Assembly: GCF_008189405.1 (NCBI RefSeq)
Contig: NZ_CP043316.1
Location: forward strand, 420,001-452,000
Source: Candidatus Saccharimonadota bacterium
GTDB lineage: Bacteria > Pseudomonadota > Alphaproteobacteria > CAJXXZ01 > 1604HC
DNA length: 32,000 nt
Reading direction: 5' to 3'
This document shows, piece by piece, positions 9,553-25,478 of the stretch (positions are counted from its first letter, which is position 1; each line of letters begins with the position of its first letter). The notes under the pieces were generated by a model. It did no database searches, was not told the DNA's origin, and saw only the letters and a program-made list of their open reading frames with translations. Both the position numbers and the translations under genes were made by a program.

Positions 9553-10110
9553 ATGGAATTAATAAATAATATAGAATCAAATCTGAAAAACAGGATTGCA
9601 AAATCGATTGAAGTATTTGCAGATCACTTGAAAGGTTTGAGAACTAATGTTGTGTCCCCTGATTTTCTGAGTGCAGTAAAGATTGATGCGCATGGCCAGT
9701 TCATGCCTATCAAATCAGTTGCTAGTATTACAGTTAAAGATCAAACCTTGCACGTACAAGTATGGGATAAATCTTTAATCAAAGCTGTTGAAAAAGGAAT
9801 TATGGATAGTAAATTAAATGTGAATCCATCATTGGAAGGTGATTCTATTTTTATAAAAATTCCACCACTAACACAAGAAAGACGTAAAGAACTTGTAAAA
9901 ATGGCTAAAGACCTTAAAGAAAAATCTAAAATTTCTGTTAGAACAATTAGGCAAGATTCTATGTCAGATCTTAAAAAACTAGAAAAAGACAAAGCAATAT
10001 CTGAGGATGCTAGAAAGAAATCAGAAAAAATATTTGAAGAAATTATCAAAAAAGGAACAGCTCAAATTGAGTTACTTACATCTCAAAAAGAAAAAGATAT
10101 CATTGGCTAA
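9553..10110 (+). CDS. frr: Ribosome recycling factor
   Basis: Evidence is LRTNVVSPDFLSAVKID, VWDKSLIKAVEKGIMDS and PPLTQERRKELVKMAKD. Confidence 0.95.
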   Translation: MELINNIESNLKNRIAKSIEVFADHLKGLRTNVVSPDFLSAVKIDAHGQFMPIKSVASITVKDQTLHVQVWDKSLIKAVEKGIMDSKLNVNPSLEGDSIFIKIPPLTQERRKELVKMAKDLKEKSKISVRTIRQDSMSDLKKLEKDKAISEDARKKSEKIFEEIIKKGTAQIELLTSQKEKDIIG

Positions 10111-10516
10111 ACTGATTTGTTTCACCACATTTCATTACATTAAACGTACAATTATACTTTGAGAATCTGATGTAAAACTGTAATTGAATTGAATGAAAAT
10201 ACCAATCATATATTTTAAGCTTTAGTTTTTTTTATATTTTATACACTTTATTATCCTAATTTTATAGAATTAATAAATTTACCTTTGCTAGCTGAATAAA
10301 ATGCACTTAACATTCATTTTATCCATATAGCATGATTTGATTACTTATCAAATTTAATACAACTAATTAAGCTAAGCATAAGAATCAATCAATACTTATT
10401 TCACTATATATTTTAGTTAAAAAAAACATTATTCACTTGATTTATATATTTAACTTTTATCAACTTATTAACTTTATGCACCCAAATATCATTAACTTCC
10501 ATGCATATAATAATTA

Positions 10517-10849
10517 TTAAAAGGCTGATTTATTTAATGATAATTGTAAAGATGATAGTAAATCTATAAAGCAACAGTCAAACACTTCACGCTTTAGTAC
10601 AATCACAATATCTTTAGCAATTACAGAATGATGTTCGCATAAAATACGATCAATAGCATTTTTAATTCTTCTTTTACATTTATTACGAACTACAGCATTG
10701 CCAAGCTTTTTGTTAGCAATAATCCCTATCCTAATTTTATCTTCATTATTATCAATACTACGAATAGAAAAAAACTTAGAAAAAAAAGGCTTTTCTTTTT
10801 TAGCTTTTTGAAATATATATCTACAACTTAAAGCAACATATTTGCGCAT
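10517..10849 (-). CDS. rnpA: RNase P protein component
   Basis: The basic RNR-like motif KKLGNAVVRNKCKRRIKNAI is present. It starts immediately after the rpmH stop, the classic rpmH-rnpA pair. Confidence 0.85.
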   Translation of the reverse strand: MRKYVALSCRYIFQKAKKEKPFFSKFFSIRSIDNNEDKIRIGIIANKKLGNAVVRNKCKRRIKNAIDRILCEHHSVIAKDIVIVLKREVFDCCFIDLLSSLQLSLNKSAF

Positions 10850-10984
10850 TTATGCTGAGATTTTACTTCTACCTTTTCTACGTCTTGCTGACATTACATT
10901 GCGTCCATCTTGAGTAGACATTCTTTTTCTAAATCCATGTCTTCTTTTTCTGACTAATTTACTTGGTTGATAAGTACGTTTCAT
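10850..10984 (-). CDS. rpmH: 50S ribosomal protein L34
   Basis: My own translation gives [44 protein letters not shown] (44 aa). It is not in the supplied track because it is short. Confidence 0.9.
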
Positions 10985-11064
10985 AGTAAAATTTTCGCGT
11001 TTTTTGTTAAATATGTCAAGAAGAGATATTGTAAAAAAAAATCATAAGGGTTAGAATTTCAACT

Positions 11065-11155
11065 GGAGAGGTGGCCGAGAGGCTTAAGGCGGCGGTTTGC
11101 TAAACCGTTATACGTTTCTAACGTATCGAGGGTTCGAATCCCTTCCTTTCCGCCA
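11065..11155 (+). tRNA. tRNA-Ser, anticodon GCU, 91 nt, CCA encoded
   Basis: I folded it by hand. The acceptor is GGAGAGG/CCTTTCC and the D stem has 3 bp. The anticodon stem is GCGGT/ACCGT with loop TTGCTAA. There is a long variable arm (ATACGT-TTCTA-ACGTAT), a T arm GAGGG-TTCGAAT-CCCTT, discriminator G and CCA. Confidence 0.85.
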
Positions 11156-11290
11156 ATTCATTTTTTTTGTATTTTATTGCGAGAGGAAGGGCAAAAACAA
11201 GATTTAAAATACCCTTCCTTTCCGATTTCATTTTATTCAATCGAGTAGATATCCTATCTTTCCGCCATCATTTTATTCAGGCGAGTAGAT
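11140..11290 (+). repeat. Degenerate direct copies of the tRNA-Ser 3-prime end plus flanking sequence (att-like scars)
   Basis: The genuine tRNA end is CCCTTCCTTTCCGCCA-ATTCATTTT (11140-11164). It recurs as CCCTTCCTTTCCG-ATTTCATTTTATTCAATCGAGTAGAT (11212-11250) and ATCCTATCTTTCCGCCA-TCATTTTATTCAGGCGAGTAGAT (11251-11290). A related ATTTTATTGCGAGAGGAAG occurs at 11171-11189. AGGAAGGG (11185-11192) is inverted relative to CCCTTCCT (11212-11219). Confidence 0.6.
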
Positions 11291-11297
11291 GAATATA

Positions 11298-11471
11298 GTA
11301 TTTTAGAAGTGCAAAATTAGCATTAGCACAATTAATGCAACTGAATCATATAATGCTCTGTACATTGCGATCGGAAGCTTCAAATTACTATAGAATAACT
11401 GTCATGCAAAATGCAGGACAGAATAAATGCATAAATATCTGGTTGAATTATGGCGTATTTTTAGTGAAATG
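11298..11471 (+). pseudogene. Truncated, frameshifted remnant of a GH108 muramidase paralog (3-prime third only)
   Basis: The nucleotide string aligns by eye to the reverse complement of 3489-3650. Two frames together read ..INATESYNALYIA / RSEASNYYRITVMQNAGQNKCINIWLNYGVF, against IATINEANSYALLCALRSEAANYYRIIVMQNANQNRFINGWLNRAYF in the intact gene. There are in-frame stops near 11318-11330. Nothing is left of the catalytic N-terminal part. Confidence 0.7.
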
Positions 11472-11473
11472 AT

Positions 11474-14413
11474 TTATTGAACAAATATTGGAGAAAGTGA
11501 ATATAGAAAATCATAAAATACAAACCCAATTATATGAAGAACAAAATCCATTACTCTAATATTTTTTGTAATAGCGGGCCCATTAAATAATAAATATGCT
11601 AGTTGCATAGGAATAAATGCAGAATTTACATTAATCATTCTTGTATCCCATTCTACATCATCACTGCCAATCATTTTACAATACATTATAGGATACATAG
11701 ATGCAATTAATAAACTATACATATCCTCTTCACTATTGTTCCTTAATTGTGAAAATATATGTTGAAATAAAGCGCCTCCTAACATAAATTTAGTCCAATA
11801 GAAACTATTAGTACGCATATAATCTGTTGCAAGTAATAATGATATTGAACTTGCAATGGATTTAAGGTTTTTGAAATTATCCTTACTAAGAAGATTAGCT
11901 TCATATTTTATCAAATTAGCTGTATTAACTACTAATTTATATACTGGATATGAACTAATAACTGAACCAGCTAATATTTTCATGCAAATTAAGTCATTAT
12001 TTGTCATATAATCAATATGATATGTTGATATTGTTGCTATAAAGAATAACATTGCCTTGGTATAATAATCACGATAAACATGATTTTGCATATCATATTC
12101 CATATATTCAATAATATTGACTATAGATCTTATTGCAATATATGGGTAAACAATTGAACCAGCGAATATTTTTGTACAAAGTAAATTATTTTGTGCTATA
12201 TAATCTATTGCATATGTGAGCGATGATATAATTGAAAGAACTTCAATAAGATTAAGCTCGCCTGCATTGCTTCTAATAGGAAGTTCAGCTTCATTTTTCA
12301 TAATTTTTGCAAATTCATTATTCATGTCCGAGCTTATAACATATTCAGCAAGTTTAATGCCTGATCTGCATGCGACATATGGATAAGTAAATGAACCTAT
12401 AGTTAATTTGCTCCAATAAAAATCTTCATTCCCTGCTATATAATCTACAGCCGATGCTGATAATGATAAAAATGCACACAATTTAATAATATTAAGATCA
12501 AGATTTTTAACTTCATTTTTCATAATTTTTTTGATTTTATTATTAATGTCAGAGTTAATAATATATTCAGCAATATTATTATATAAGTGATTTAAGTATG
12601 ATATTTTAAGCTGTATGCTTGAAGCAGATCCATGATCATTAGTTGAGTATAACCAATCAGGGCAATACTTTTTTTCTCCACCATCACCTTTTTTTTGATA
12701 GGATGTTATTTTTTTTGATATGGTTTTTTGATCTTTATCTGAGCTAAATGTAATTAAATTATTTAAATCACTTTTCAAATAGTTATATGCAACATTATCA
12801 GTTTTATTATTGAATAAATGCAATATATAAGAAATATAATAATTTATTGCCCCTTTATCTAGTTTTATAATCTCTTTATACCAATTTATATGTGGATGTG
12901 GTTGCTGTGTTCCATGTCCTGCTGATACATATATTACACTGGGTTTAAATAACTTATTTAGTAACAGCATAGTAGTTGCTTGGCCTGCAGAACCATGATG
13001 AGGTGTTAAACATATAATGTCTCCTTTCAATAAATTATCATTTGGCAATAATTTAATTAACTCATTAATTGCACTTTCATAGCTTTTCCCTGAGATTTGT
13101 TTTAATTTATCAATTTTTTCCAATATGTCTTTCAATAGCATGTTACTTTTTTTATCTTTGTTTTTAACCAATTTAAAAGCTGTGCTATCTTCAGCATCTC
13201 CTGTACATAAGTTTTTAATCAATTCAAAAGCTGTACTATCTTCAGCATCTCCTGTGCATAGCATTGATACTTGCTTTGAAATGCAATGTTTTGAATATTT
13301 ATGTGTAAATGAAATAATGGGGCTTGCTGCATTACAACCTGTAGTATTCATCGACCATATGTATATATAATCTTTCAGCTGATTAATAGCATTATCAAAT
13401 TTATATAAAATGCTTGTATATATTGAACTTCTCTTTTTTGTAACATCAAATAACTTTTTAATATCACCAGCAAAAAATGGATATTCATAGAAAGATAAAT
13501 GATAATACCCTGCAGTATATCCTGACACTTTTATTACCTCATTTACACCTGTATATTTAGTATCATCATTAGAAGGAAGGTTATTTGCGTTCTCACTTCT
13601 ATCTCTTTGTGGAGATAAAGATCTTTCAGCTTTGTGCATTTCACCTGTATTTTTATTATGCCAATCCCCACATAAAAATGATATTACATCTGTTTTTATT
13701 GGATAAATTAATTTTTCTATCTTATTTATATGATCTTTTTCTGGATGTGATAAGAATATAATAAGCAAATCTAAATCTTTAAGTTTAGAGTTAACTCTGC
13801 TAATCATTTTATTCTCTACATTTTTTCTAGAAGCGTTTGCATATTTTCTATTTGCTATTATTGATAATTCAAGCGCTGTTTTTATAGATTCTGCTTCACG
13901 CTTCTTATATCCAGTAAGTGAATCTATTAATGTATCTATTTTTTCTTTAATCTTCTTATCATCAAATTGCAATATATCAGATTCTTCATTTTCTTGCATA
14001 TATGTAGATAAAGAAAACTCTTTATATGCACATGATATATCTTCTTCTGATACTGCATTTTTATGAGCAAATATTGTATTTATACCCTGTTGCAAATAAC
14101 TTTGAAAATAAAATTGCTTTATTAATTCTTCTACTGCTTTTTCAGCTTTTTTCTTTGCTTCATATGCTGCTTTTATATTTTCATCACCCATCATATCATT
14201 CCATGGATATACACAACTCCCGCAATCATACAAGAATCCAATTCTACCTGCACTAGTATTATATTTATTCAACTGGCAATTACCTTGCCCGACGTCAAAT
14301 ATATGAAATTCACTATTCCATACTACCGCTCCAATAGAAGCACAAACCATACTAAGATTTCGTGCCATTTTTAGCAAATTCTGACCTATATAATCACTAT
14401 CAATATGTTTCAT
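11474..14413 (-). CDS. Paralog P2 of the ComEC-type MBL-fold family; the longest member, with four hydrophobic C-terminal repeat modules
   Basis: GGAGG lies 4 nt upstream of the ATG. Motifs are EFHIFDVGQGNCQL, IGFLYDCGS, LLIIFLSHPEKDHIN, FLCGDW, IYIWSMNT, SPIISFTH, LCTGDAEDST (duplicated), LTPHHGS, YVSAGHGTQQPHPHINW and CPDWLYSTNDHGS. The C-terminal roughly 375 aa (11474-12600) are repeated hydrophobic modules. Confidence 0.8.
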   Translation of the reverse strand: MKHIDSDYIGQNLLKMARNLSMVCASIGAVVWNSEFHIFDVGQGNCQLNKYNTSAGRIGFLYDCGSCVYPWNDMMGDENIKAAYEAKKKAEKAVEELIKQFYFQSYLQQGINTIFAHKNAVSEEDISCAYKEFSLSTYMQENEESDILQFDDKKIKEKIDTLIDSLTGYKKREAESIKTALELSIIANRKYANASRKNVENKMISRVNSKLKDLDLLIIFLSHPEKDHINKIEKLIYPIKTDVISFLCGDWHNKNTGEMHKAERSLSPQRDRSENANNLPSNDDTKYTGVNEVIKVSGYTAGYYHLSFYEYPFFAGDIKKLFDVTKKRSSIYTSILYKFDNAINQLKDYIYIWSMNTTGCNAASPIISFTHKYSKHCISKQVSMLCTGDAEDSTAFELIKNLCTGDAEDSTAFKLVKNKDKKSNMLLKDILEKIDKLKQISGKSYESAINELIKLLPNDNLLKGDIICLTPHHGSAGQATTMLLLNKLFKPSVIYVSAGHGTQQPHPHINWYKEIIKLDKGAINYYISYILHLFNNKTDNVAYNYLKSDLNNLITFSSDKDQKTISKKITSYQKKGDGGEKKYCPDWLYSTNDHGSASSIQLKISYLNHLYNNIAEYIINSDINNKIKKIMKNEVKNLDLNIIKLCAFLSLSASAVDYIAGNEDFYWSKLTIGSFTYPYVACRSGIKLAEYVISSDMNNEFAKIMKNEAELPIRSNAGELNLIEVLSIISSLTYAIDYIAQNNLLCTKIFAGSIVYPYIAIRSIVNIIEYMEYDMQNHVYRDYYTKAMLFFIATISTYHIDYMTNNDLICMKILAGSVISSYPVYKLVVNTANLIKYEANLLSKDNFKNLKSIASSISLLLATDYMRTNSFYWTKFMLGGALFQHIFSQLRNNSEEDMYSLLIASMYPIMYCKMIGSDDVEWDTRMINVNSAFIPMQLAYLLFNGPAITKNIRVMDFVLHIIGFVFYDFLYSLSPIFVQ
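13161..13262 (-). repeat. In-frame 51-bp tandem duplication inside P2
   Basis: 13161-13211 and 13212-13262 differ at about 5-6 positions. They encode LCTGDAEDSTAFELIKN and LCTGDAEDSTAFKLVKN. Confidence 0.85.
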
Positions 14414-14489
14414 TTTCCTCCAATTAATTAATAACCATCAAAATTGTAATATTATGGCATAAAGCGATTAAGCCAACACAATAAATGTT

Positions 14490-14540
14490 GATAATTGCTC
14501 AGATTGTAACCTATTTTACAGGCAATTTGAATAGCAACCT
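14490..14540 (-). promoter_or_regulatory. Putative sigma-70 promoter plus conserved CAATTAT box upstream of P2
   Basis: In gene orientation it reads TTCAAA (14531-14526), a 17-nt spacer, TACAAT (14508-14503), then CTGAGCAATTATC. The same architecture and spacing occur upstream of P3, P4 and P5. Confidence 0.4.
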
Positions 14541-14613
14541 AGAATTACCTAAATTTCAATCAAACTCAACAATCAAGATTTGAGAGCCAATTTAGTATGG
14601 ATTTTTCAATTTC

Positions 14614-16773
14614 CTATTCTGATTGTGTATCTGTATTTGCAGCAACTTCTAATTCTTGAATTCTGTTTTGTAACTCTTCTAGTTTAGTTTGCATTTCATC
14701 TTGCTTATTTTTAGATTTTTGATTTTTTGCCTTTAATTCTTTGATTATGGTTTGTGCTTCTTGATTTTCATCTTCTAATTTTATAGCTTTAACTTGAATT
14801 TTAGATATTTCGTTCATGAGATTATCATATGCATATTCATCCTTTACATTATAACTCCTATTTTTCATTCGTCTTTTTATAATAGGCACTTTTCTACCTT
14901 TTGACTTTTTTGTTTTATCAGATAATACTGAGCCATGCATTTCTAGTGTATTAATTTTATCTATTAATAGCTGATTATCAAGCATATAACCATCTATTAA
15001 CAGTTGATTATCATGCATGCATCTATTAATTTTATCTATTAATAGCTGATTACTGAGCATACAGTTGAATTTTATATACATTTCACCATGGCTATTTGTT
15101 GAATATAGCCATTCTGGACACTGTTTGAATCCTTGGCTTTGTGATGAAAACCCCATAGACTCAGATGAAAAACACTCTAATGTTATGCCTTTATTTAGTA
15201 TTTTAGTGAGATTTTCATTACAGTCTTTTGCGCCTTTTATATTTTGCATAAATTGTTTGTAATGATCTTCAATGTTTTCTATTTTAGGACAATAACTACC
15301 TTGTTGATTCTTACCTATTGTTATTGGAAGAAACCAGTTTATATGCGCATGTGGCTCTCTAATCCCTTGTCCATTTGATACATATATAGCACTGAATTTA
15401 AATAATTTATACAATAATAATGTGTCATAATATTGCTCTTGAGACCCATGATGAGGAGCTATACATATAATATCTATATCTTCATTATAACAGCCAAAAT
15501 TTGTTTTTATCATCTCTCTAAATAGATTTGTCTTGCCAATATATTTAATAACTTCTTTATAAGCATCTATGTATTCTTTATATCCAATATGCTTACCATT
15601 TTCATTCTTACTATGCTTATGTTCCAAGCATTTCTGTAATTCTTTTGCTTTTTCTAATAGACCTTTTGCATCTGGAAAATAACTATAAATGAAGTTAACA
15701 ATTGTATATGCATCAGCATCTCCAGTACAAAGCATAGATATATATTTATTTTTTGTTTTAACTATATCTATTTCTTGCATTACACTTTCACCTTTGTGAT
15801 TTTTATATAAACGATTCTCCTTATCTATATACTGATATTTATATTTATGTGTAAATGAAATAATTGGGCTTGCTGAATTATCATTACCTTCAATATTAGT
15901 GTTCATTAGCCATATGAATATGAAGCTTCTCAACTCACTAATTGCACCATCAAACTTAGTTAGTAAAATATGCTTCCTTGCATAATTATGCTTTGTTAAA
16001 TAAAATAATTTTTCAATATTCATTGAATTGTTTAGCGTATCACACATTAAATCTCCATTAAAATCTTTAAAATTATGCGGATATGCTACAAATAAATTCT
16101 CTTTTCTTATCGTTTGTTTGCTATCATCCCAATAGTTATATAATCTTTCTCTTTCTAAAGTTTCTTTTATGCTTTGAGCAATGTTTGTATTTTTAGTCCA
16201 ATCACCACATAAAAATGCAACTATCTTTAAATCAGGATTTCTTTTGCTAAGCTCTTTTTTAGTATTATTACAATATTCACTTAGATCTTTAGGATCTATT
16301 ATATGATTTATTATATTTATATGGTCTTGATCTGGATGCGATAGAATTATTACAAGCAAATTTAAATCTGTAAGCTTATCATTAATTTCATGGATTAATG
16401 TATCATCTTCCTGATTTAAAGATATACAAGATATTTGATAATCTAAATCTTTTTTTTCTCTTTTTTCTCCTAAATCACCTTTGTACATTTCTTTCATATA
16501 TTCATTTTGATCAGAAATACGTTTTGGATATTCACTGCTCCCGCAATCATATAGGAATCCAATTACTTCTCTTTTATTTTGCTCTACCGACACCCCATAT
16601 TGATCTTTTTTATTATACTCAATAACATACTTATTAAGCTGGCAATTTCCTTGCCCAACATCAAATATATGCATTTCGCTGCTCAGAACTATAGATTCGA
16701 TCGATATGAACCCAACATTAACTGCAAGCATTAAGCAATATAATCTGTCTGATATACTAATATTACTATTCAT
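14614..16773 (-). CDS. Paralog P3 of the ComEC-type MBL-fold family, with a C-terminal coiled-coil tail
   Basis: GAGGT lies upstream of the ATG. Motifs are EMHIFDVGQGNCQL, IGFLYDCGS, LLVIILSHPDQDHIN, FLCGDW, IFIWLMNT, SPIISFTH, LCTGDADAYT, IAPHHGS, YVSNGQGIREPHAHINW and CPEWLYSTNSHGE. The C-terminal part is heptad-like and K/E/Q-rich. Confidence 0.8.
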   Translation of the reverse strand: MNSNISISDRLYCLMLAVNVGFISIESIVLSSEMHIFDVGQGNCQLNKYVIEYNKKDQYGVSVEQNKREVIGFLYDCGSSEYPKRISDQNEYMKEMYKGDLGEKREKKDLDYQISCISLNQEDDTLIHEINDKLTDLNLLVIILSHPDQDHINIINHIIDPKDLSEYCNNTKKELSKRNPDLKIVAFLCGDWTKNTNIAQSIKETLERERLYNYWDDSKQTIRKENLFVAYPHNFKDFNGDLMCDTLNNSMNIEKLFYLTKHNYARKHILLTKFDGAISELRSFIFIWLMNTNIEGNDNSASPIISFTHKYKYQYIDKENRLYKNHKGESVMQEIDIVKTKNKYISMLCTGDADAYTIVNFIYSYFPDAKGLLEKAKELQKCLEHKHSKNENGKHIGYKEYIDAYKEVIKYIGKTNLFREMIKTNFGCYNEDIDIICIAPHHGSQEQYYDTLLLYKLFKFSAIYVSNGQGIREPHAHINWFLPITIGKNQQGSYCPKIENIEDHYKQFMQNIKGAKDCNENLTKILNKGITLECFSSESMGFSSQSQGFKQCPEWLYSTNSHGEMYIKFNCMLSNQLLIDKINRCMHDNQLLIDGYMLDNQLLIDKINTLEMHGSVLSDKTKKSKGRKVPIIKRRMKNRSYNVKDEYAYDNLMNEISKIQVKAIKLEDENQEAQTIIKELKAKNQKSKNKQDEMQTKLEELQNRIQELEVAANTDTQSE
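14951..15060 (-). repeat. Three imperfect roughly 35-bp tandem copies inside P3
   Basis: TTAATTTTATCTATTAATAGCTGATTA occurs at 14951 and again at 15026, with a diverged copy between them. They encode (D)NQLLID(K/G) three times. Confidence 0.6.
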
Positions 16774-16837
16774 TTGACCTCAATCTATTAATAAGTTTCA
16801 GATTTTATAGCATAGCATACACCATGTTTCTAAAATT

Positions 16838-16880
16838 TTATAATTGACTGAAATATACATCGATTTGTATAGTTATGCAA
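16838..16880 (-). promoter_or_regulatory. Putative sigma-70 promoter plus CAATTAT box upstream of P3
   Basis: In gene orientation it reads TTGCAT (16880-16875), a 17-nt spacer, TATATT (16857-16852), then TCAGTCAATTATAAAA. Confidence 0.35.
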
Positions 16881-16999
16881 TATTACTATTAGTGTTTTTC
16901 GACGATTTAGGAAGATAATCAAGTTTCATATTATACTGATTTTCCAATTATGATTATATAGAATCACATATAACCTATGCATATTATTATCCGCTTAGT

Positions 17000-18427
17000 C
17001 TAAACATACATAATTTCATAGTGCTTCAAATTTTTCTTATATTGAATGAATTTCAATGCATCTAATAAGCTACCTTCTTCATCAATTAATCCTAAACTCT
17101 TAGCATCTCTTCCTGTATATACTTGCCCTAAACTAATCTGGCGAGAATATTCTAAACTAAACTTTCTTTGATTTGCGACTAACTTTCTAAATTGATCCAG
17201 CGCATCTTTAATATATACGATGATTTCTTTTTTCTGCTCTGCAGTAATAGGTGTATATGAGTTAATATCTGGCATATCATGTGAATCTATATTTTCTACA
17301 TTCACCCCTGGTGTTTGAATATGTACATGATTCATAATAACCCCAATTGATCCAACTAATGCACATTTAGGAGCAAATATCTTATCTGCACTCAAAGCTA
17401 ATATGTATGATCCAGATGCACAAATATCTTTAATAGATGCCACAAGCAACTTTTTCTCTTTCAGCTTTATCAATGCATTATATATTTCATTGGAAATGTA
17501 CGCACTCCCTCCTCCGCTATCAATTCGCAATATCACAGCTTTAATTCTAGGATTTCTCGCAATATTATCTATTTGACTTATAAAGCTCATATTTCCTAAA
17601 TAAGATCCAGCACGAATAGTACCATTAACATTGATCACTGCAATTTTATTATATGATTTTCTATCTTTGCATATTCTAGCATATTTGAATGTACTCAATT
17701 TATTATTATATCTGCTACTCCAAGTGGCAAAGTTAGATATATTAATAAAAGAATATTTCTTTGCGATATCTGCATTCTTATGCATTCCGAGCATTCCATT
17801 TTCAATATTAGTATGTAATTTAATATCATTGATTACTAAATCAGAACATGCTTTTAACAATTTTTTCAACCCATCCTTATATTCATCACTCATGCTGTTC
17901 CTAGATTCACTTTCTGGGGTTTTAAATTCTCCAGTTGCAATACTAGTAACTTCAATTCCTTGAGCCTTTAATGCATCACGTACAAATGGCATATGTATGT
18001 GAATTCCAGAAATATGGCTCATTTCATTTTGTGTTAACGTAATACTTGATGCATGAGAAGCTAAATACAATGATTTAAATGTCAAAGATGGAATATAAAA
18101 ATCCACAAATTTCTTATTTCTCTTAAATAGATCAAATACTTGGGTCAATTCATTAATATTAGCGATTGAATCTTCACTTGCACAAAAAGCTCCCTGATAA
18201 TTAATCGCAATGCCTCGTACTTTAGGATCATGCGCAGCTTTGTTTAATAAGCATAAAAATTGATTGAACTGATTATGCTGGAAATATAAATCATCAAACC
18301 CATAGGTCAAAGTAATTTTATTACTATATTGATACTTAAACATTTGATAAAAAGATTTCATTGAACTAAATCCCAATAAAACAAACAAAAAATTTCTTAA
18401 AAGCTTCATATGCTGCTCATTGTACAA
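17000..18427 (-). CDS. sppA: Signal peptide peptidase SppA (S49 family), two-domain form
   Basis: There is an N-terminal membrane anchor. The C-terminal domain reads RIDSGGGSAYISNEIYNALIKLKE..ICASGSYILALSADKIFA..VGSIGV. The N-terminal domain is a degenerate copy. Confidence 0.8.
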   Translation of the reverse strand: MYNEQHMKLLRNFLFVLLGFSSMKSFYQMFKYQYSNKITLTYGFDDLYFQHNQFNQFLCLLNKAAHDPKVRGIAINYQGAFCASEDSIANINELTQVFDLFKRNKKFVDFYIPSLTFKSLYLASHASSITLTQNEMSHISGIHIHMPFVRDALKAQGIEVTSIATGEFKTPESESRNSMSDEYKDGLKKLLKACSDLVINDIKLHTNIENGMLGMHKNADIAKKYSFINISNFATWSSRYNNKLSTFKYARICKDRKSYNKIAVINVNGTIRAGSYLGNMSFISQIDNIARNPRIKAVILRIDSGGGSAYISNEIYNALIKLKEKKLLVASIKDICASGSYILALSADKIFAPKCALVGSIGVIMNHVHIQTPGVNVENIDSHDMPDINSYTPITAEQKKEIIVYIKDALDQFRKLVANQRKFSLEYSRQISLGQVYTGRDAKSLGLIDEEGSLLDALKFIQYKKNLKHYEIMYV

Positions 18428-18554
18428 TTATATTAATCTTTTATCTATGTCACATATACCATAAACAGTAATAACTGAAATAAAATTCAAATCTCTATCA
18501 CATTATTCAGTTTTTTGGGAATCGCTAATTTTCAAAAATCAAAAATTTGAGAAT

Positions 18555-19367
18555 TTATTTTATATCATTCTCAGGGCTTCTCACTCCAATTGTATGATAT
18601 CCACTATCTACGTAAATGATTTCCCCGGTCACACCATGAGATAATTCACTCACTAAGTATGTCGCAGTTCCACCAACTTCTTCCAAAGTAGTATTTGCTT
18701 TAATTGGGGAATGCGTTTTATGCCATGTTAGCAATTCTGGGAAATCTTTAATCGCTGATGAAGCCAAAGTTCTTACTGGTCCAGCAGAAATACAGTTTAC
18801 TCTAATATTATCCACACCAAAATCATTCGCCAAGTACATCACACTAGCTTCCAACGCACTTTTCGCTACTCCCATAACATTATAATTCGGAATATATTTT
18901 ACTGCTCCATAATATGAAAGTGTGATCATGGACCCACCATTTTTCATTAATGGGGCACATTCTCTAGCTGCTGCTGTGAAAGAATAACAGGAAATATTCA
19001 TTGCCTGAGCAAATGCATCTTTTGTAACATCTGAGTACTTACCATTCATATATGTTTTATCTGCAAATGCAATTGAGTGTACAAGAAAATCCACATTATC
19101 CCAATGATTTCCAACTTTATTGAAGAATCCAGCAATTTCGCCTTCGTTATCAGCATCACATGGATACGCAAAACTAGCATTTAGCTGATCTGCGATCCCA
19201 ACTGCTCTACTTTCTAGATTCGGATGGTAACTAATTCCAATTTCAGCTCCATGATTCACAAAGGACTCCGCGATACCAGACGCAATAGATCTGTTATTTG
19301 CAACCCCCATAATTATACCTTTTTTACCTTTTAACAAGTTACTTTTACAATCATCTGTAGTGTTCAA
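18555..19367 (-). CDS. fabI: Enoyl-ACP reductase (NADH), FabI
   Basis: Evidence is LLKGKKGIIMGVANNRSIASGIA, HSIAFA, SYYGA..IPNYNVMGVAKSALEA and INCISAGPVRTLA. Confidence 0.9.
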   Translation of the reverse strand: MNTTDDCKSNLLKGKKGIIMGVANNRSIASGIAESFVNHGAEIGISYHPNLESRAVGIADQLNASFAYPCDADNEGEIAGFFNKVGNHWDNVDFLVHSIAFADKTYMNGKYSDVTKDAFAQAMNISCYSFTAAARECAPLMKNGGSMITLSYYGAVKYIPNYNVMGVAKSALEASVMYLANDFGVDNIRVNCISAGPVRTLASSAIKDFPELLTWHKTHSPIKANTTLEEVGGTATYLVSELSHGVTGEIIYVDSGYHTIGVRSPENDIK

Positions 19368-19517
19368 TTCACACCCCTTACAGGTCGAATTTTATGCATT
19401 AGTATTTATTTTGTCAAACTGATTAATTATTGCTGACTAATTATTACTAACTATGCACTATAATTTTCAAATGCATACCCACTTTTGAAAAGAGATGGGT
19501 TTATATGCTTTTGCTAC

Positions 19518-21794
19518 TTATTTTCTAATATGAGAAGGGCTTTTCTCTCTTAGAAAATCACCATGAGGCTTTCCTGCTGCGACTTGATTATCAAACCCAG
19601 ACCAATCGCTAATCCTTACATGCAAACTACCATGATTATTTGTTGAATATAACCAATCTGGAGAACTTTCAAGATAGTTTGTTAATAGAATTTTATCTGA
19701 CCTATTATATGTAGTTATATAAATCTCTTCATCAGAATATATATCACTAGGTAGTCTCAATACATTTTTTGTAATCATTTCACTTATTTTATAACCAGCA
19801 TAATTAAGATCATCATATTTAAATGCTATAGCGCTATCACCATTGCTACATAATTTACTATATCTACTCATTATATCCATGCTTTTTATACGATCATACC
19901 AATTTTGATGTATATGAGGACAATTAGGTAGTGTTCCATGTCCATTAGATACATACATCATACTAACTTTAAAAAATTTATCTAAAAACTTCATTGTGCT
20001 CCATTGATTTTCAGATCCATGATGAGGTGCTATACAAATAATATCATGATTTTTACTGTCATGACCCAATAAATCTCTTAATAAGTCAGTAGATATATAA
20101 CTTTCTTTTTCAAGCTTTGATGGCACGCTACTTATTAATCCCAAAATTGTACTATCCTCAGCATCTCCTGTACAAATCATTGATAAATACTTTGTTTTTC
20201 CATTTGATCTATCTTGATATTGATGTGTAAACGAAATAATCGGACTTGATGCATTATCATTACCTGCAATATCCGTATTCATAGACCATATGTATATATA
20301 ATCTTTCAACTGAGCAATCGCATTATCAAATGCACCTAAATACCCTACCAAATTTTTTATCTCTTCATTCTTTTTCTGATTAGCATGCGTTTCCATTTCA
20401 TTTAATCTTCTTATTGCCTTTGCTTCTGCTGTTTTTTCTGCTAACACTCCTTTGTTTATTGCATTTTTTACTAATCTTTCTTTTTCTACATCTGTTACTT
20501 CTGCTTTCATTGCTTCTTTTGCTTTTAATGCTCCGTGCACTGCTAATTTTGCTGCTGCTTCTGCTTCTGATGCTCTTTCTGCTGCTTTTTCTGCTGCTTT
20601 TTCTTTTACTTCTAATACTTTTGCCTCTTCTGCCTCTATTTTATTGACTGCATCTATTGCTTCTACTGCACCTATTGCTTCTACTGCTTTTTTTACATCT
20701 TCTTCTTTTTCTGTTACTTTTTCTATTGCTTTTTCTATTGCTTTTATTGTTGCATTTTTCTTTAATGTTCCTATTTTTGCTTTTTCTGCTACATTTTTTG
20801 CTTTTTTCTCTTCTGCTTTTTCTTTTGCTTCTCTTAATTCATCTATTGCCTTATTTAGTTTGTCTTTCATTTTTATTACTTTGTTTGCTACTGTTGTTGC
20901 TTCATCTATTGCTTTTGTTGCTACTTTTGCTTCTGTTTCTGCTTCTTCTGCTTTTATTGCTAATTCTACTGCATCTTTTACTGCATCTTTTACTGCATCT
21001 TCTTCTATTGCATGATTTATTACTGACTCTACTGCTTCTTTTGCTTCTTTTGCTTCTTCTTTGTTGTTATACTTTATTATTGCTTTGCTTTTTTCTGTTT
21101 TTATTGCTTCTATTTTATTTTTCTTTTGCTTATCTATGCATTCATCACTGAATTGACCTTGAGCATACTCCCACATCTCTTTAATATTTCTAGCAGGAAA
21201 ATCACTATCTATACTATCTTTCCAACAATATGGCTCTATTGCATATCTACTTAAAAGCTGCTCTACTTTCCATGATTCTTCTGTATTTTTACCAGCCCAA
21301 TCTCCACATAGAAAGGCAATTTTAGCTAATCCATCAGGAATATTTAATTTGCCTATATTATTTATATGATCTAGATCTGGGTGTGATAAGATGATTACAA
21401 GTAAATTTAAATCTGAGAATTTAAGCGCATCTGTAATACCTTTTAACTGCATTTTTGAAACATCACTACGCTTATTTGCGCATACTGATTTATAATATAT
21501 ACTAGAATTTACATTATCATCTGATAAAGAATCGTCTATAGCATTATATGCACTCTTAATTTCCTCATTACGCATCATATTATTCCATGAATTCTCACTG
21601 CTCCCACAATCATAAAGGAATCCAATTCGCTCTTCTCCGTTAGGACGCATAGGATTTTGCACAACATACTTATTCAACTGGCAATTTCCTTGTCCAACGT
21701 CAAACACATGCATCTCACTACTAATTGGCGCAGCGTCAACTGATATACCAACAACCAATATCAAGCTGCATAATAGCATCATATTATTCTTCAT
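19518..21794 (-). CDS. Paralog P4 of the ComEC-type MBL-fold family, with a roughly 265-aa Ala/Glu/Lys-rich insert
   Basis: AGAGG lies upstream of the ATG. The signal peptide has a VDA-AP site. Motifs are EMHVFDVGQGNCQL, IGFLYDCGS, LLVIILSHPDLDHIN, FLCGDW, IYIWSMNT, SPIISFTH, ICTGDAEDST, IAPHHGS, YVSNGHGTLPNCPHIHQNW and SPDWLYSTNNHGS. Confidence 0.8.
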   Translation of the reverse strand: MKNNMMLLCSLILVVGISVDAAPISSEMHVFDVGQGNCQLNKYVVQNPMRPNGEERIGFLYDCGSSENSWNNMMRNEEIKSAYNAIDDSLSDDNVNSSIYYKSVCANKRSDVSKMQLKGITDALKFSDLNLLVIILSHPDLDHINNIGKLNIPDGLAKIAFLCGDWAGKNTEESWKVEQLLSRYAIEPYCWKDSIDSDFPARNIKEMWEYAQGQFSDECIDKQKKNKIEAIKTEKSKAIIKYNNKEEAKEAKEAVESVINHAIEEDAVKDAVKDAVELAIKAEEAETEAKVATKAIDEATTVANKVIKMKDKLNKAIDELREAKEKAEEKKAKNVAEKAKIGTLKKNATIKAIEKAIEKVTEKEEDVKKAVEAIGAVEAIDAVNKIEAEEAKVLEVKEKAAEKAAERASEAEAAAKLAVHGALKAKEAMKAEVTDVEKERLVKNAINKGVLAEKTAEAKAIRRLNEMETHANQKKNEEIKNLVGYLGAFDNAIAQLKDYIYIWSMNTDIAGNDNASSPIISFTHQYQDRSNGKTKYLSMICTGDAEDSTILGLISSVPSKLEKESYISTDLLRDLLGHDSKNHDIICIAPHHGSENQWSTMKFLDKFFKVSMMYVSNGHGTLPNCPHIHQNWYDRIKSMDIMSRYSKLCSNGDSAIAFKYDDLNYAGYKISEMITKNVLRLPSDIYSDEEIYITTYNRSDKILLTNYLESSPDWLYSTNNHGSLHVRISDWSGFDNQVAAGKPHGDFLREKSPSHIRK
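20345..21140 (-). repeat. Low-complexity, degenerate A/E/K-rich (coiled-coil-like) coding insert in P4
   Basis: The plus strand is an almost pure pyrimidine run. It translates as EAKEAKEAVE..AVKDAVKDAVELAIKAEEAETEAK..AIEKAIEKVTEKEE..AVEAIGAVEAIDAV... It lies between the FLCGDW and FDNAIAQL motifs. Confidence 0.7.
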
Positions 21795-21905
21795 TTTACC
21801 TCTATCCTCATAATGCCCAGGTTTTTACAATGAATTGCACCTGAAACTTTATAATTGTTCAGACTATAACCTATTTTCCCAGCAATTTAAAGAGTAATGC
21901 CTGAA
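21795..21905 (-). promoter_or_regulatory. Conserved upstream region of P4 (putative promoter, 5-prime UTR, RBS)
   Basis: It is near-identical to 25368-25478. In gene orientation it reads TTTAAA (21891-21886), a 17-nt spacer, TATAGT (21868-21863), then CTGAACAATTATAAA. Confidence 0.5.
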
Positions 21906-21969
21906 TATCACGAAAATTCGTTTATTGCCTAAAATCCACATAAAAAGTACAGTAAAATCAGGAGAATAT

Positions 21970-22698
21970 ATGAGTATCGATACATTTTTATCTGAATTGG
22001 AATCTGGAAACACAAGAATCGTACGTAAAAATCAAGGAAAATGGGAATTAAATCAACCTGCTTTCTCCAAAATAAACGAAATATTCAAATCGGACAAAAA
22101 AATCAGCAAAATCGACGGATTGGTCAAATGGGCAGACAAAATCGATATGCAAAGCAACCTATTACATGATCAAGATTTGCTCAACAAAGATTTCCGACTA
22201 GTACCAGGTTCATGGGTAAGGCGCGGAGCATATATCGGCCCAAAATCCGTAATCATGACAAACTCATTCGTGAATATCGGGGCCCACATCGGGGATGAAA
22301 CCATGGTGGATAGCGGAGTCACAATCGGATCCTGCGCATACATCGGCGCACAATGCCACATCTCATCCAATGTCATCATCGCCGGCGTACTCGAACCATC
22401 ACAACACATGCCAGTAATTATCGAAGATAACGTGTTTATCGGCGCACAATCACTCATTGCTGAAGGGGTTGTAGTGCCAGAAGGATGCGTAATAGGTGCA
22501 GGTACAAAACTTACATCCTCCACTAAAATCTTCGACGTCGATGGGGATGAAATCAACGAAATCGAACCGTACAGCGTCATAATCCCAGGAACATACAGCA
22601 AAACCTCCAAAATCTCATTCTCATGCGCTGTAGTTATCAAGAAAGTCGACAAAAACACAAAATCTAAAACAAACATCAATGAATTACTTAGAGATTGA
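21970..22698 (+). CDS. dapD: 2,3,4,5-tetrahydropyridine-2,6-dicarboxylate N-succinyltransferase
   Basis: The hexapeptide-repeat core is RLVPGSWVRRGAYIGPKSVIMTNSFVNIGAHIGDETMVDSGVTIGSCAYIGAQCHISSNVIIAGVLEP. I prefer the ATG at 21970, which is preceded by AGGAG, over the TTG at 21925 used by the track. Confidence 0.9.
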   Translation: MSIDTFLSELESGNTRIVRKNQGKWELNQPAFSKINEIFKSDKKISKIDGLVKWADKIDMQSNLLHDQDLLNKDFRLVPGSWVRRGAYIGPKSVIMTNSFVNIGAHIGDETMVDSGVTIGSCAYIGAQCHISSNVIIAGVLEPSQHMPVIIEDNVFIGAQSLIAEGVVVPEGCVIGAGTKLTSSTKIFDVDGDEINEIEPYSVIIPGTYSKTSKISFSCAVVIKKVDKNTKSKTNINELLRD

Positions 22699-22742
22699 GG
22701 TGTTTTAGCAATGGAAATAGATCTATGTACTGGTAGGTTTTA

Positions 22743-22930
22743 ATGAATTGTCTAAATATTTGCATCTCATCATCACTATTTTTCGAGGAACGTTTTATTC
22801 ATATGGTTGCTCATGGGCACTACACCTAATCGGGTACAATCACGAAACCTAGTAACAAAGCAAAATCATGCAGGACGTAGAAATAAAATTGCTCAAAACC
22901 TTTAATATCCAAAATCCTTATTTAACTTAA
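22743..22930 (+). pseudogene. ybeY: Remnant of the endoribonuclease gene ybeY (C-terminal part, frameshift plus two in-frame stops)
   Basis: Frame 1 reads ..LNICISSSLFFEERFIHMVAHG. After a 1-nt loss in a G run, the next frame reads ALHLIGYNHET-stop-stop-QSKIMQDVEIKLLKTFNIQNPYLT. This matches the YbeY signature H.vHG.LHL.GYDH....M...E..iL....i..PY. The N-terminal roughly 90 aa of a normal YbeY are missing. Confidence 0.55.
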
Positions 22931-22961
22931 TAGAAATATCAATAGTTTTTATCTATATATA

Positions 22962-25367
22962 TTATGAGCTTTGACCAGATTGATTATCATCTCTTACAGC
23001 TGAAGGAACACTGCCAGCCCTACCTGTGCTATTATGCAACGCAACTGGCACACGTGATGATGGTGGTGAAGGTGAAGATGCATGTGTAAGGCCACGCCAA
23101 TCACGTATATAAATGTGCAAACTGCCATGATTATTTGTTGAATATAGCCAAGATTGGCAATGTTTATGCTCAGCAGATTCATTATATGAATCTGATGCAG
23201 ATTTTTTCTCACTATACATAGTTATGCTTATCTCTTTATCATAAATATCATAGCTACCCTTTAACTTTATCTTATCGCCTGACGAATCATAAACTGAGAG
23301 TCCCATAGCATCCTTACTATTAATACATAGATAGTTATACCTCTTTATAATATCATTATTAAATATGCCAATACTCATTGTTCTATACCATCTCTTATTA
23401 ATATGTGGATGTCGCCCTCCATGCCCATTAGATACATAAACCATGCTCATCTTCATTAAATCATTTAATAAAAGCACAGTATTTGCCTGACCTGCAGAAC
23501 CATGATGTGGCGCAACACAAATAATATCATGATCACTAGTATCACTTGTTATAGAATCATATAATGCATATAATCCAACTTTATGACTATCTGTCGCCTG
23601 CATCAATGCATTTACATATGAGTATTTTTGTAATTTCATATTCCTACGCACAATATCTTTTCTATCTTTTAAATATAGTGGCAACCCTCCTTCCGATGAT
23701 ACACTATTCTCACCTTTGCCACACACTGTACTATCCTCAGCATCTCCCGTACAAATCATTGATAAATATTTTGTCCCTGGTACAGTATGTGTAAATGAAA
23801 TAATAGGACTTACTGCATTCTGATCATTTCCAGGCGCAGTATTCATAGACCATATGTATATATAATCTTTTAACTGAGCAACTGCATTATCAAATAAATC
23901 TAAACATCCATCATATTTTTCTAATTCACCTACTTTCTTTTCTGCTTCCTTTGCTTCCCTTATTTCTTTCTCTCCTTCTTCTATTGCTTTGCTTGTTTCT
24001 TTCTCTCCCTCTTCTATTGCTTTTCTTATTTTTTTCTCTTCTGCTTCTATTGCTTTGCTTGTTTTTTTCTCTGCTGCTTCCTTTGCTTCCCTTATTGCTT
24101 TCTTTTCTGCTTCTATTGCTTTGCTTGTTTTTTTCTCTGCTGCTTCCTTTGCTTCCCTTATTGCTTTCTTTTCTGCTTCTATTGCTTTGCTTGTTTTTTT
24201 CTCTGCTGCTTCCTTTGCTTCCCTTATTGCTTTCTTTTCTGCTTCTATTGCTTTGCTTGTTTCTTTCTCTCCTTCTTCTATTGCTTTTCTTATTTTTTTC
24301 TCTTCTGCTTCTATTGCTTTGCTTGTTTTTTTCTCTGCTGCTTCCTTTGCTTCCCTTATTGCTTTCTTTTCTGCTTCTATTGCTTTGCTTGTTTTTTTCT
24401 CTGCTGCTTCCTTTGCTTCCCTTATTGCTTTCTTTTCTGCTTCTATTGCTTTGCTTGTTTCTTTCTCTCCTTCTTCTATTGCTTTTCTTATTTTTTTCTC
24501 TTCTGCTTCTATTGCTTTGCTTGTTTTTTTCTCTGCTGCTTCCTTTGCTTCCCTTATTGCTTTCTTTTCTGCTTCTATTGCTTTGCTTGTTTTTTTCTCT
24601 GCTGCTTCCTTTGCTTCCCTTATTGCTTTCTTTTCTGCTTCTATTGCTTTGCTTGTTTTTTCCTCTGCTGCTTCCTTTGCTTCCCTTACTGCTATTTCTA
24701 TATTCTTTTCTTCTTCCTTTATTTTTTCTATTACATCATCTATTGCTGCATATATATGATTATTCCTATTTTTAACCTTGTTTTCTAATTGAGATTTTGC
24801 CTTATCCCACAACCGTAAAATATTCCCAGAAAAGAAATTACTGCTTTTTTCTTTATCCCAATAAAATGGCTCTATTGCATACTTACTTAATACTTCTTGT
24901 ACATTCCATGATTCTACAGTATTTTTCCCAACAAAATCACCACATAAAAATGATATAATTTTTAGTGTGTCATTATCAATTTTTGCTTTTATATCAGTAC
25001 TTTTCAAAACAACATCTATCTTATTTATATGATCTAAATCTGGATGTGACAAAACTATTACAAGTAAATCTAAATCTACAAGCTTGTCGTTAATGCTATG
25101 AATTAATTTATCAGAATTCAATATACCTCCAGGTAAGACACCTTTACCTCCTAAACGCTGAGGAAACTCACAACTCCCGCAATCATACAGGAATCCAATT
25201 CGCTCTTCTCCATTAGGACGCATAGGATTTTGCACAACATACGTATTCAACTGGCAGTTGCCTTGTCCTACATCAAATACATGCATCTCACTACTAATTG
25301 GCGCAGCATCGATCGATATACCAACAACCAGTATCAGGCTGCGTAATAGCATCATATTATTCTTCAT
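22962..25367 (-). CDS. Paralog P5 of the ComEC-type MBL-fold family, with a 12-unit 22-aa tandem repeat insert and a Pro/Ser-rich tail
   Basis: The 5-prime end is near-identical to P4. Motifs are EMHVFDVGQGNCQL, IGFLYDCGS, LLVIVLSHPDLDHIN, FLCGDF, IYIWSMNT, SPIISFTH, ICTGDAEDST, VAPHHGS, YVSNGHGGRHPHINKRW and CQSWLYSTNNHGS. Confidence 0.8.
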   Translation of the reverse strand: MKNNMMLLRSLILVVGISIDAAPISSEMHVFDVGQGNCQLNTYVVQNPMRPNGEERIGFLYDCGSCEFPQRLGGKGVLPGGILNSDKLIHSINDKLVDLDLLVIVLSHPDLDHINKIDVVLKSTDIKAKIDNDTLKIISFLCGDFVGKNTVESWNVQEVLSKYAIEPFYWDKEKSSNFFSGNILRLWDKAKSQLENKVKNRNNHIYAAIDDVIEKIKEEEKNIEIAVREAKEAAEEKTSKAIEAEKKAIREAKEAAEKKTSKAIEAEKKAIREAKEAAEKKTSKAIEAEEKKIRKAIEEGEKETSKAIEAEKKAIREAKEAAEKKTSKAIEAEKKAIREAKEAAEKKTSKAIEAEEKKIRKAIEEGEKETSKAIEAEKKAIREAKEAAEKKTSKAIEAEKKAIREAKEAAEKKTSKAIEAEKKAIREAKEAAEKKTSKAIEAEEKKIRKAIEEGEKETSKAIEEGEKEIREAKEAEKKVGELEKYDGCLDLFDNAVAQLKDYIYIWSMNTAPGNDQNAVSPIISFTHTVPGTKYLSMICTGDAEDSTVCGKGENSVSSEGGLPLYLKDRKDIVRRNMKLQKYSYVNALMQATDSHKVGLYALYDSITSDTSDHDIICVAPHHGSAGQANTVLLLNDLMKMSMVYVSNGHGGRHPHINKRWYRTMSIGIFNNDIIKRYNYLCINSKDAMGLSVYDSSGDKIKLKGSYDIYDKEISITMYSEKKSASDSYNESAEHKHCQSWLYSTNNHGSLHIYIRDWRGLTHASSPSPPSSRVPVALHNSTGRAGSVPSAVRDDNQSGQSS
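23930..24716 (-). repeat. 66-bp (22-aa) in-frame tandem array, about 12 units, with 198-bp higher-order structure
   Basis: Unit A is KAIEAEKKAIREAKEAAEKKTS and unit B is KAIEAEEKKIRKAIEEGEKETS. The order in gene direction is A-prime A A B A A B A A A B, then a hybrid unit. Many units are identical at the nucleotide level. Confidence 0.9.
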
Positions 25368-25478
25368 TTTACCTCTATCCTCATAATGTCCAGGTTTTTA
25401 CAACGAACTGCACCTGAAACTTTATAATTGTTCAGACTATAACCTATTTTCCCAGCAATTTAAAGGGTAATGCCTATA
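25368..25478 (-). promoter_or_regulatory. Conserved upstream region of P5 (putative promoter, 5-prime UTR, RBS)
   Basis: It is near-identical to 21795-21905, with a handful of substitutions. In gene orientation it reads TTTAAA (25464-25459), a 17-nt spacer, TATAGT (25441-25436), then CTGAACAATTATAAA. Confidence 0.5.

Follow-up and report, generated by a model that had tools for sequence, protein, structure and literature searches.

Exported phosphodiesterases of the metallo-β-lactamase (MBL) fold are exemplified by Pce/CbpE, the teichoic-acid phosphorylcholine esterase of Streptococcus pneumoniae, which is a binuclear enzyme with C-terminal anchoring repeats. A second well-described system is the competence protein ComEC/Rec2, whose C-terminal domain, as studied in Moorella and Bacillus, is extracytoplasmic, has Mn2+-dependent nuclease and phosphodiesterase activity, and carries Asp for the second His of motif II and Asn for the His of motif III (Silale et al. 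2021, PMC8579336). ComEC-like MBL modules also serve as stand-alone effector enzymes in Avs1a (NF041809) and 6A-MBL (NF058524), which are cytoplasmic parts of defence operons. The present analysis concerns five paralogous proteins, P1 to P5, in which a ComEC-type MBL domain directly follows an N-terminal hydrophobic leader. They are encoded in a stretch of 32,000 nucleotides (the window; NZ_CP043316.1, positions 420,001 to 452,000) of Candidatus Cytomitobacter primus, a Holosporaceae endosymbiont of the diplonemid Diplonema japonicum with a genome of 622,378 bp. The reading preferred here, with slightly better than even confidence, is that they form an exported family of metal-dependent phosphodiesterases or nucleases that would act outside the bacterial cytoplasm. 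Together, P1-P5 occupy 11,799 bp, or 36.9% of the window, and are laid out as follows (lengths in amino acids, aa):

P1, 1364-3379, plus strand: 671 aa, with a leader, a ComEC-type MBL core with a degenerate active site, and a 216-aa helical hydrophobic tail.
P1 tail, 2729-3376 (aa 456-671), plus strand.
P2, 11474-14413, minus strand: 979 aa, with a weak leader and an MBL core with intact ligands (D108 replaced by E).
P2 insertion: about 135 aa, charged, after the YDCGS motif.
P2 tail, 11477-12613 (aa 601-979, 379 aa), minus strand: four helix-DY(I/M)xxN-helix modules.
P2 tandem duplication, 13160-13260, minus strand: 51 bp, in frame, doubling the motif IV block CTGDAEDSTAF(E/K)L(I/V)KN.
P3, 14614-16773, minus strand: 719 aa, with a leader and a ligand-intact MBL core with several large insertions.
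P3 C-terminus, 14617-14916 (aa 620-719), minus strand: K/E/Q-rich and helical.
P4, 19518-21794, minus strand: 758 aa, with a signal-peptide-like leader (aa 1-22, ending in VDA-AP) and a ligand-intact MBL core.
P4 insertion, 20361-21128 (aa 223-478, 256 aa), minus strand: A/K/E-rich degenerate repeats between FLCGDW and FDNAI.
P5, 22962-25367, minus strand: 801 aa, with a signal-peptide-like leader (IDA-AP), a ligand-intact MBL core and a short S/P-rich C-terminus.
P5 insertion, 23934-24779 (about 282 aa), minus strand: 11 'TSKAIE' units of a 22-aa repeat.

The five open reading frames (ORFs) of the preliminary description exist exactly as it placed them, and each of its ten ordered motifs occurs once and in the same order in every paralog, with the exception of CTGDA, which is found twice in P2 because of the 51-bp tandem duplication. 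As more than 80 columns are invariant in the five-way alignment and the cores are 39-57% identical, P1-P5 are homologous and not similar by chance. P1-P4 correspond exactly to deposited C. primus 'hypothetical proteins', and P5 departs from its deposited version in repeat number only. The assignment to the MBL superfamily is already on record for some members of the wider family, as a sixth C. primus paralog bears the NCBI name 'MBL fold metallo-hydrolase' and two relatives are labelled 'beta-lactamase superfamily II metal-dependent hydrolase' by JGI.

The earlier proposal of a ComEC-type core is borne out by several comparisons. A profile built from 52 family members finds six different ComEC/Rec2 chains in the PDB, with E-values from 1.9e-11 (best, 9vcb_A) to 3.4e-5, and ComEC (with 9vcb, 9vcf, 9vc9, 9ic4 and 9vc6 among its entries) is the sole family matched, as no other MBL family appears in that search at E below 0.1. 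The corresponding PDB search with a five-sequence profile of P1-P5 gives no matches. Individually, 40 of the 52 members match TIGR00361 (best E = 4e-15), and sub-threshold matches are obtained to 6A-MBL for 31 and to Avs1a for 27 of them, with best E-values of 7.7e-7 and 4.1e-11, respectively, all far under the curated cut-offs. With hhalign, the family aligns to E. coli ComEC (YcaI) with a probability of 85% (E = 5.9e-6) and is collinear with it through a transmembrane helix followed by LDVGQG, LYDTG, LSHEHLDH, NNHS, LTGDIE and PHHGS; the order common to the family and ComEC in general is DVGQG, YDxG, SHxDxDH, N..S, TGDxE, PHHGS and G..YGHP. Significant ComEC alignments span the C-terminal half of the domain (N..S, TGDAE, PHHGS and AGxG..YGHP), and the N-terminal half is covered by weaker matches, such as that of P5 residues 21-126, which include motif II, to positions 434-517 of TIGR00361. 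Taken one by one, the window proteins score far below the curated TIGR00361 cut-off of 190 bits (P5 reaches 15 bits, E = 0.005). The Pfam model Lactamase_B (PF00753, gathering threshold 22.7 bits) gives 12.6 bits for P4, 13.0 bits for P5 and no match for P1-P3, and at E < 0.01 it is found in only one of the 52 family members.

The metal ligands lead to the same assignment. Among 49 members, the motif II positions are H in 48, D or E in 48, D in 48 and H in 47; the motif III Asn is present in all 49 and the motif IV Asp in 48; and the two His of PHHGS and the His of GHP are found in 49, 48 and 47, respectively. Motif II is recognisable in 144 sequences, 142 of which conform to SHx[D/E]xDH; it reads SHPDxDH in P3-P5 and SHPEKDH in P2, and P1 (SYPNVEN) has lost it. 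The motif III Asn, at position 235 of P1, aligns with the N of the ComEC 'gNn.S' motif in both the PDB and the YcaI alignments. The core is thus a ComEC-type MBL domain, because both ComEC-specific deviations, Asp in motif II and Asn in motif III, are present and near-invariant. A β-lactamase or a member of another MBL clade is ruled out by this ligand pattern together with the restriction of matches to ComEC-type models. AlphaFold2 (AF2) models built from the family alignment reach a pTM of 0.81 for the P3 core and a pLDDT of about 90 over residues 20-370 of the P1 core, with the helical P1 tail below 50; in these predictions, the order of strands and helices places each motif at the end of a strand, as expected for an MBL domain.

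P2-P5 keep every ligand position that is near-invariant across 49-144 family members. P1 is the single outlier, as seven of its nine ligands are substituted (H to Y, D to N, D to E, H to N, D to N, H to R and H to N), and three of its motifs are present in degenerate form as SYPNVEN, CAGNAEH and SHRES. The part of the preliminary description that made all five paralogs hydrolases is therefore not plausible for P1. At the same time, the 671-codon ORF of P1 is intact, and the protein keeps 12 of 16 other near-invariant positions compared with two of nine ligand positions (N235 and H327; Fisher p = 0.017). This concentration of losses on the ligand positions suggests a changed function and not decay, and P1 is probably a pseudoenzyme.

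The loss of the P1 ligands could also be taken to mean that these are non-enzymatic surface or structural proteins, with the MBL domain as a scaffold for repeats, or drifting duplicates that have no specific host-directed role. Such an origin would fit the tendency of reduced symbiont genomes to accumulate drifting genes, as it would the long low-complexity K/E/A repeats of P4 and P5, whose number varies between data sets, and the fresh in-frame duplication within a catalytic motif of P2. It is nevertheless very unlikely, given that P2-P5 retain all near-invariant ligand positions, that the losses in P1 centre on those very positions, that P4 and P5 are transcribed, and that five ORFs of 671-979 aa have stayed intact at 30% GC, where stop codons arise easily. 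In addition, the family makes up about 2.2% of the 622-kb genome when the sixth paralog is included, which argues for selection.

The MBL domain of P1-P5 lies at the N-terminus behind the leader, as had been noted from the sequence, and is not preceded by a competence domain. No Pfam match to the Competence channel domain (PF03772) is found in P1-P5 at E <= 1, even when the tails of P1 and P2 are included, the OB-fold domain (DUF4131) has no Pfam match in them either, and no sequence precedes the leader. In ComEC, by contrast, the MBL domain is C-terminal and follows the channel and OB domains. ComEC proper is thereby ruled out. The family further differs from ComEC in being multi-copy with added repeats and tails, and in five or six large family-specific insertions that roughly double the size of the domain. 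What is common to both is the placement of the domain directly behind a hydrophobic helix, expected at the outer side of the inner membrane. The export leaders and housekeeping surroundings of P1-P5, which have no defence partners, also set them apart from the cytoplasmic Avs1a and 6A-MBL, and together with the scores far below cut-off they rule out an anti-phage component of either type.

The leaders were judged by hand and from hydropathy. In P4 and P5, MKNN is followed by a 15-residue hydrophobic run and then by the putative cleavage-site motif reported earlier, which is present as VDA-AP in P4 and as IDA-AP in P5; these two leaders are convincing signal-peptide candidates, and those of P1 and P3 are plausible ones. 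Throughout P1-P5 the MBL core begins about five residues past the N-terminal hydrophobic segment. Of the 108 family members whose N-terminus is complete, 93 have a hydrophobic leader (10-mer), and between it and the first strand there is often an AxA-like site with acidic residues after it. In HMMER alignments the family leader coincides with the last transmembrane helix of ComEC before LDVGQG, at a score of only 2-4 bits, which is suggestive of a family derived from the 3' end of comEC with the helix reused as an export signal. With such a leader, the domain would stay at the membrane face on which the ComEC nuclease works.

This placement is also what would be expected of a nuclease acting in trans for a channel-only ComEC, be it in transformation, in the receipt of DNA from gene-transfer agents (GTAs), or in the use of DNA as a nucleotide source, with residual genes for type II secretion (T2SS) and for type IV pili (T4P) and a ComF-type gene as partners. 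ComEC with OB and competence domains and without an MBL domain is described as the common alphaproteobacterial architecture (PMC8513845), and about half of all ComEC proteins are without the C-terminal domain, which makes degradation of the second strand an open question in the literature. T2SS/T4P remnants and GTA genes have been reported in these symbionts, and the ComFC-like gene mentioned in the preliminary description is indeed found at 7994-8701, where it encodes a double zinc ribbon and a phosphoribosyltransferase (PRTase) domain. A role in trans is nonetheless unlikely. Six copies, one of them dead, with stalks and tails exceed the needs of a single housekeeping partner, MBL-less ComEC is common and this family, with 141 representatives, very rare, no examined member adjoins competence genes, and the fusions to OTU domains described below would be senseless in a bacterial periplasm.

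Beyond the core, the divergence among P1-P5 is of a modular kind, with repeat insertions, tails and small duplications added to the domain. Identity over the profile-aligned core is 34-52%, at which synonymous sites are probably too saturated for the ratio of non-synonymous to synonymous substitution (dN/dS) to be informative on the diversifying selection suggested in the preliminary description. The P5 repeat has a 66-bp unit in 11.5 copies (TRF) of 90% identity. Its count varies by data set: against the 11 'TSKAIE' units of the window (23934-24693; 801 aa), there are eight in the NCBI version P0004 (735 aa) and four in the Trinity transcript P0003 (647 aa), with identical flanks, which reflects either assembly collapse or real length polymorphism. 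The duplication in P2 (TRF, 2.0 copies, 92% match) looks like a recent slippage event inside a conserved active-site motif. At aa 650-714, P3 shows a weak match to an ERM helical domain (E = 4.7e-4). Insertion into loops is recurrent, because paralogs of the sister symbionts carry charged helical insertions at other loops: by inspection, one lies after motif II in Candidatus Nesciobacter abundans P0010 and another after YDCG in Candidatus Cytomitobacter indipagum P0007, as in P2.

P1 and P2 have a common tail of two (P1) or four (P2) helix-DY(I/M)xxN-helix modules and a conserved terminal block of about 110 aa that closes in an aromatic hydrophobic helix. Local searches found no homologues of this tail elsewhere among the collected sequences. 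With Kyte-Doolittle values of 1.4-1.6, it is a borderline candidate for transmembrane segments, and the AF2 prediction leaves its structure unresolved. An exported MBL module with a repeated tail recalls the layout of Pce/CbpE. By analogy, the family could be an exported phosphodiesterase for another substrate, such as phosphocholine or phospholipid head groups of host or mitochondrial membranes, which the symbionts closely touch, and the hydrophobic tails of P1 and P2 would then hold the enzyme on a membrane. This is quite unlikely in light of the sequence comparisons. PDB sequence searches with the family profile or with members return no Pce/CbpE chain and only ComEC, and every nearest profile family is a nuclease or a nuclease-type effector. 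Pce has the canonical His ligands at the positions where ComEC and this family have the motif II Asp and the motif III Asn, a contrast drawn by Silale et al. (PMC8579336). Finally, the choline-binding repeats of the Pce tail are unrelated to the tail of P1 and P2.

The family is expanded in a small genome, as the preliminary description had it, and relatives are likewise multi-copy and variable, with six copies in C. primus, three in C. indipagum and three in N. abundans. The sixth C. primus copy (P0008, locus L003) is more distant and lies outside the window. The three C. indipagum copies (L001/L002, NZ_CP043315.1, about 456.7-477.4 kb) fall within some 12 kb, and in N. abundans (L004/L005, OZ247489.1) two copies lie within 7 kb and the third about 18 kb away. 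A neighbour-joining tree built from 423 profile columns unites the symbiont sequences and sets P1-P5 apart as a clade of C. primus alone. Separate duplications account for C. indipagum a/b (69% identical) and for N. abundans a/b (53% identical), and N. abundans c is the partner of the sixth C. primus copy. P1-P5 therefore look like an expansion specific to C. primus, with parallel duplications in two sister symbionts.

Parts of the upstream regions are also common to several paralogs:

P4 5' block, 21594-21902, minus strand: -108 to +201, with a promoter-like site at 21863-21891.
P5 5' block, 25167-25475, minus strand: counterpart of the P4 block, with the promoter-like site TTTAAA-17-TATAGT at 25436-25464.
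Promoter-like site upstream of P2, 14503-14531, minus strand: TTCAAA-17-TACAAT, inside an element of about 50 nt common to the P4 and P5 upstream regions.

The 5' blocks of P4 and P5 are 93% identical in DNA (blastn) compared with about 65% over the rest of the genes, which suggests that promoter, leader and first strands have been kept alike by gene conversion or by a partial duplication of recent date. P2, P4 and P5 each have a promoter-like element, defined by consensus match, of the form TT[T/C]AAA-17-TA[T/C]A[G/A]T that is common to them with its spacer included, and a Shine-Dalgarno-like GGAGG precedes the first ATG of P2. A P4 transcript, full length and identical, and a P5 transcript are found in the D. 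japonicum transcriptome assembly EP01064, and both genes are therefore transcribed.

An exhaustive profile search of 1.84 billion representative sequences yields 141 proteins at E <= 1e-30 and 21,588 at E <= 1e-3. The latter set is the ComEC/MBL neighbourhood, and the family itself, with a typical length of 500-650 aa, is rare and discrete. Its carriers are low-GC contigs (27-39% GC), including a metagenome-assembled genome (MAG) of Caedibacter (Holosporales) and alphaproteobacterial MAGs as well as contigs that binning assigns to Cytophagales, Opitutales or Verrucomicrobia. The neighbourhoods examined have no partner gene in common and are free of competence genes; they vary from housekeeping genes to a relaxase with transposases or to a type I restriction-modification system with Fic and an SseC-like translocon component of the type III secretion system. 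Two sequences depart from the usual N-terminus. P0019 (L016, gene 10001-11740 of the 41.6-kb JGI contig Ga0621872_04032) is without a leader, and its contig has sparse gene calls, a match to a PiggyBac-type DDE_Tnp_1_7 domain and fragmented WD40 matches; the contig may be eukaryotic and P0019 a transfer to a host genome. P0047/P0171, from the Flectonema neradi transcriptome (EukProt EP01060), has a 250-aa N-terminal extension and no hydrophobic leader, and may come from an undescribed symbiont, perhaps with another secretion route, or from the host.

Among 30 long members scanned, the MBL core is joined at its N- or C-terminal side to an OTU-like cysteine-protease domain in four (P0057, P0067, P0070 and P0079; loci L023 and L024), with Pfam scores of 24.8-27.6 bits against a cut-off of 23.3. 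The contigs of these four are too short for their gene contexts to be informative. In P0067, P0070 and P0079, the Cys motif is DGNCLF and comes after the His region, an order also seen in the aligned EschOTU chain 6w9s. By eye only, an OTU-like GQGMRCFFNAIG motif can be discerned in P0049. OTU deubiquitinases act on the eukaryotic ubiquitin system, and at least part of the family would therefore work inside host cells. The four fusions, each a predicted nuclease and an OTU-like domain in one exported protein, resemble modular nuclease-plus-OTU/deubiquitinase toxins that are reportedly found in arthropod endosymbionts, namely the pLbAR toxin of Rickettsia felis, the Cin/Cnd-type factors of Wolbachia and Spaid of Spiroplasma. 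These toxins are known to use PD-(D/E)xK or other folds for the nuclease, in contrast to the MBL-fold module of this family, and the term metallo-beta-lactamase is not found in the top-ranked literature on them. They differ from P1-P5 in addition in that the latter have no OTU domain.

An effector role for P1-P5 is indirectly backed by these fusions in distant members. It is a tentative possibility that the family represents an unrecognised class of host-delivered effector nucleases, cut from ComEC, of intracellular bacteria of protists. If this were true, the class would have radiated independently in Cytomitobacter and Nesciobacter, the membrane-inserting tail, the helical repeat stalks and the coiled coils would be targeting modules, and the catalytically dead member would act in binding or regulation. 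Host or mitochondrial nucleic acids would be the targets, and their degradation would feed nucleotide salvage or control the organelle, and the OTU-fused relatives would represent the same weapon joined to a countermeasure against the ubiquitin system.

The mechanism proposed for an exported phosphodiesterase or nuclease begins with the leader, which would carry the domain across the inner membrane by the Sec route, to the side where the nuclease domain of ComEC works. There, a putative binuclear site formed by HxDxDH, the motif III Asn, the Asp of GDAE, the two His of PHHGS and the His of G-H-P would hold a metal centre, by analogy with ComEC one of Mn2+, that activates water and cuts phosphodiester bonds, most likely those of DNA or RNA. 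Hydrolysis of nucleic acid could take place there or after further release; about half of the weight given to this reading falls on action beyond the periplasm. The C-terminal domain of ComEC, with the transmembrane helix in front of it, would have given rise to the family, which would have been duplicated repeatedly in C. primus, promoter included, within about 25 kb. The copies may then have gained modules on surface loops and at the C-terminus, namely K/E/A tandem-repeat helices (P4 and P5), a coiled-coil end (P3) and the repeated hydrophobic helical tail (P1 and P2), which would determine the location of each paralog. P1 would subsequently have lost catalysis and probably persists as a binding or scaffold protein.

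As for the physiological role, host-derived nucleic acid may be degraded at the symbiont surface or inside the host. This would fit the biology of the symbionts, which import their nucleotides and lie against the host mitochondrion or are engulfed by it. Diplonemid mitochondria are exceptionally DNA-rich. Genome papers report that the symbionts get nucleotides from the host and encode many proteins with signal peptides.

Several points weigh against an exported nuclease family. At the level of the single proteins, P1-P5 all stay below the curated cut-offs of the Pfam and NCBIfam models, and no current model of either collection covers the family. Two AF2 models, of the P3 core and of full-length P1, were compared with the PDB by Foldseek, and neither has a match at E <= 1e-3, with TM-scores below 0.3. 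MBL entries do occupy ranks 1-3 for P3 (7fct and CPSF73 among them) and rank 2 for P1 (5iqk), at E-values of only 0.04-0.16 and 0.04, respectively, so that the MBL fold is inferred from sequence and is not confirmed by structure comparison. The leader of P2 is weak, and those of P1 and P3 could be uncleaved anchors. No secretion route beyond Sec is established, as George et al. describe no more than a reduced T2SS/T4P and a type VI secretion system (T6SS) in modified form for these symbionts. The substrate need not be nucleic acid (Silale et al., PMC8579336), the tree behind the duplication history carries no support values, and Pfam finds no OTU domain (PF02338) in P1-P5, the fusions being confined to distant metagenomic members and absent from Cytomitobacter.

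The GC content of the window is 27-37%, and housekeeping genes are densely packed in it (tsf, rpsB, pyrH, greA, tpiA, frr, rnpA, sppA, fabI, dapD, ahpC, murJ, dapF and accD). Three genes of the window may be singled out:

3489-3986, minus strand: lysozyme-like GH108 and PG_binding_3 domains, directly downstream of P1 and convergent with it.
17000-18427, minus strand: signal peptide peptidase SppA (Peptidase_S49) between P3 and P4, amid genes for leader-bearing proteins, which is probably a coincidence.
27586-28731, minus strand: an ORF of 381 aa with no Pfam match at E <= 0.001.

The genome papers on these symbionts list many secreted proteins of unknown function and name parts of the T6SS as the sole effectors, and the family is not mentioned in the literature searched on C. 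primus and its relatives. That literature appears to contain no description of the ComEC-type nature of the core, of the stand-alone exported architecture or of the parallel expansions in three tiny genomes, nor of the pseudoenzyme, the modular tails and repeats, and the OTU fusions. With six members, a predicted mechanism, a leader, transcription and an inactive paralog, P1-P5 and their sixth relative are a candidate effector family for the interaction of a diplonemid endosymbiont with its host and the host mitochondrion. The ComEC nuclease module, which has mainly been studied in transformation and is seen in some anti-phage effectors, would here be reused as a free-standing enzyme with an export leader, a reuse that spans several lineages of probably intracellular bacteria. 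It may also bear on how bacteria with a nuclease-less ComEC handle the second DNA strand.

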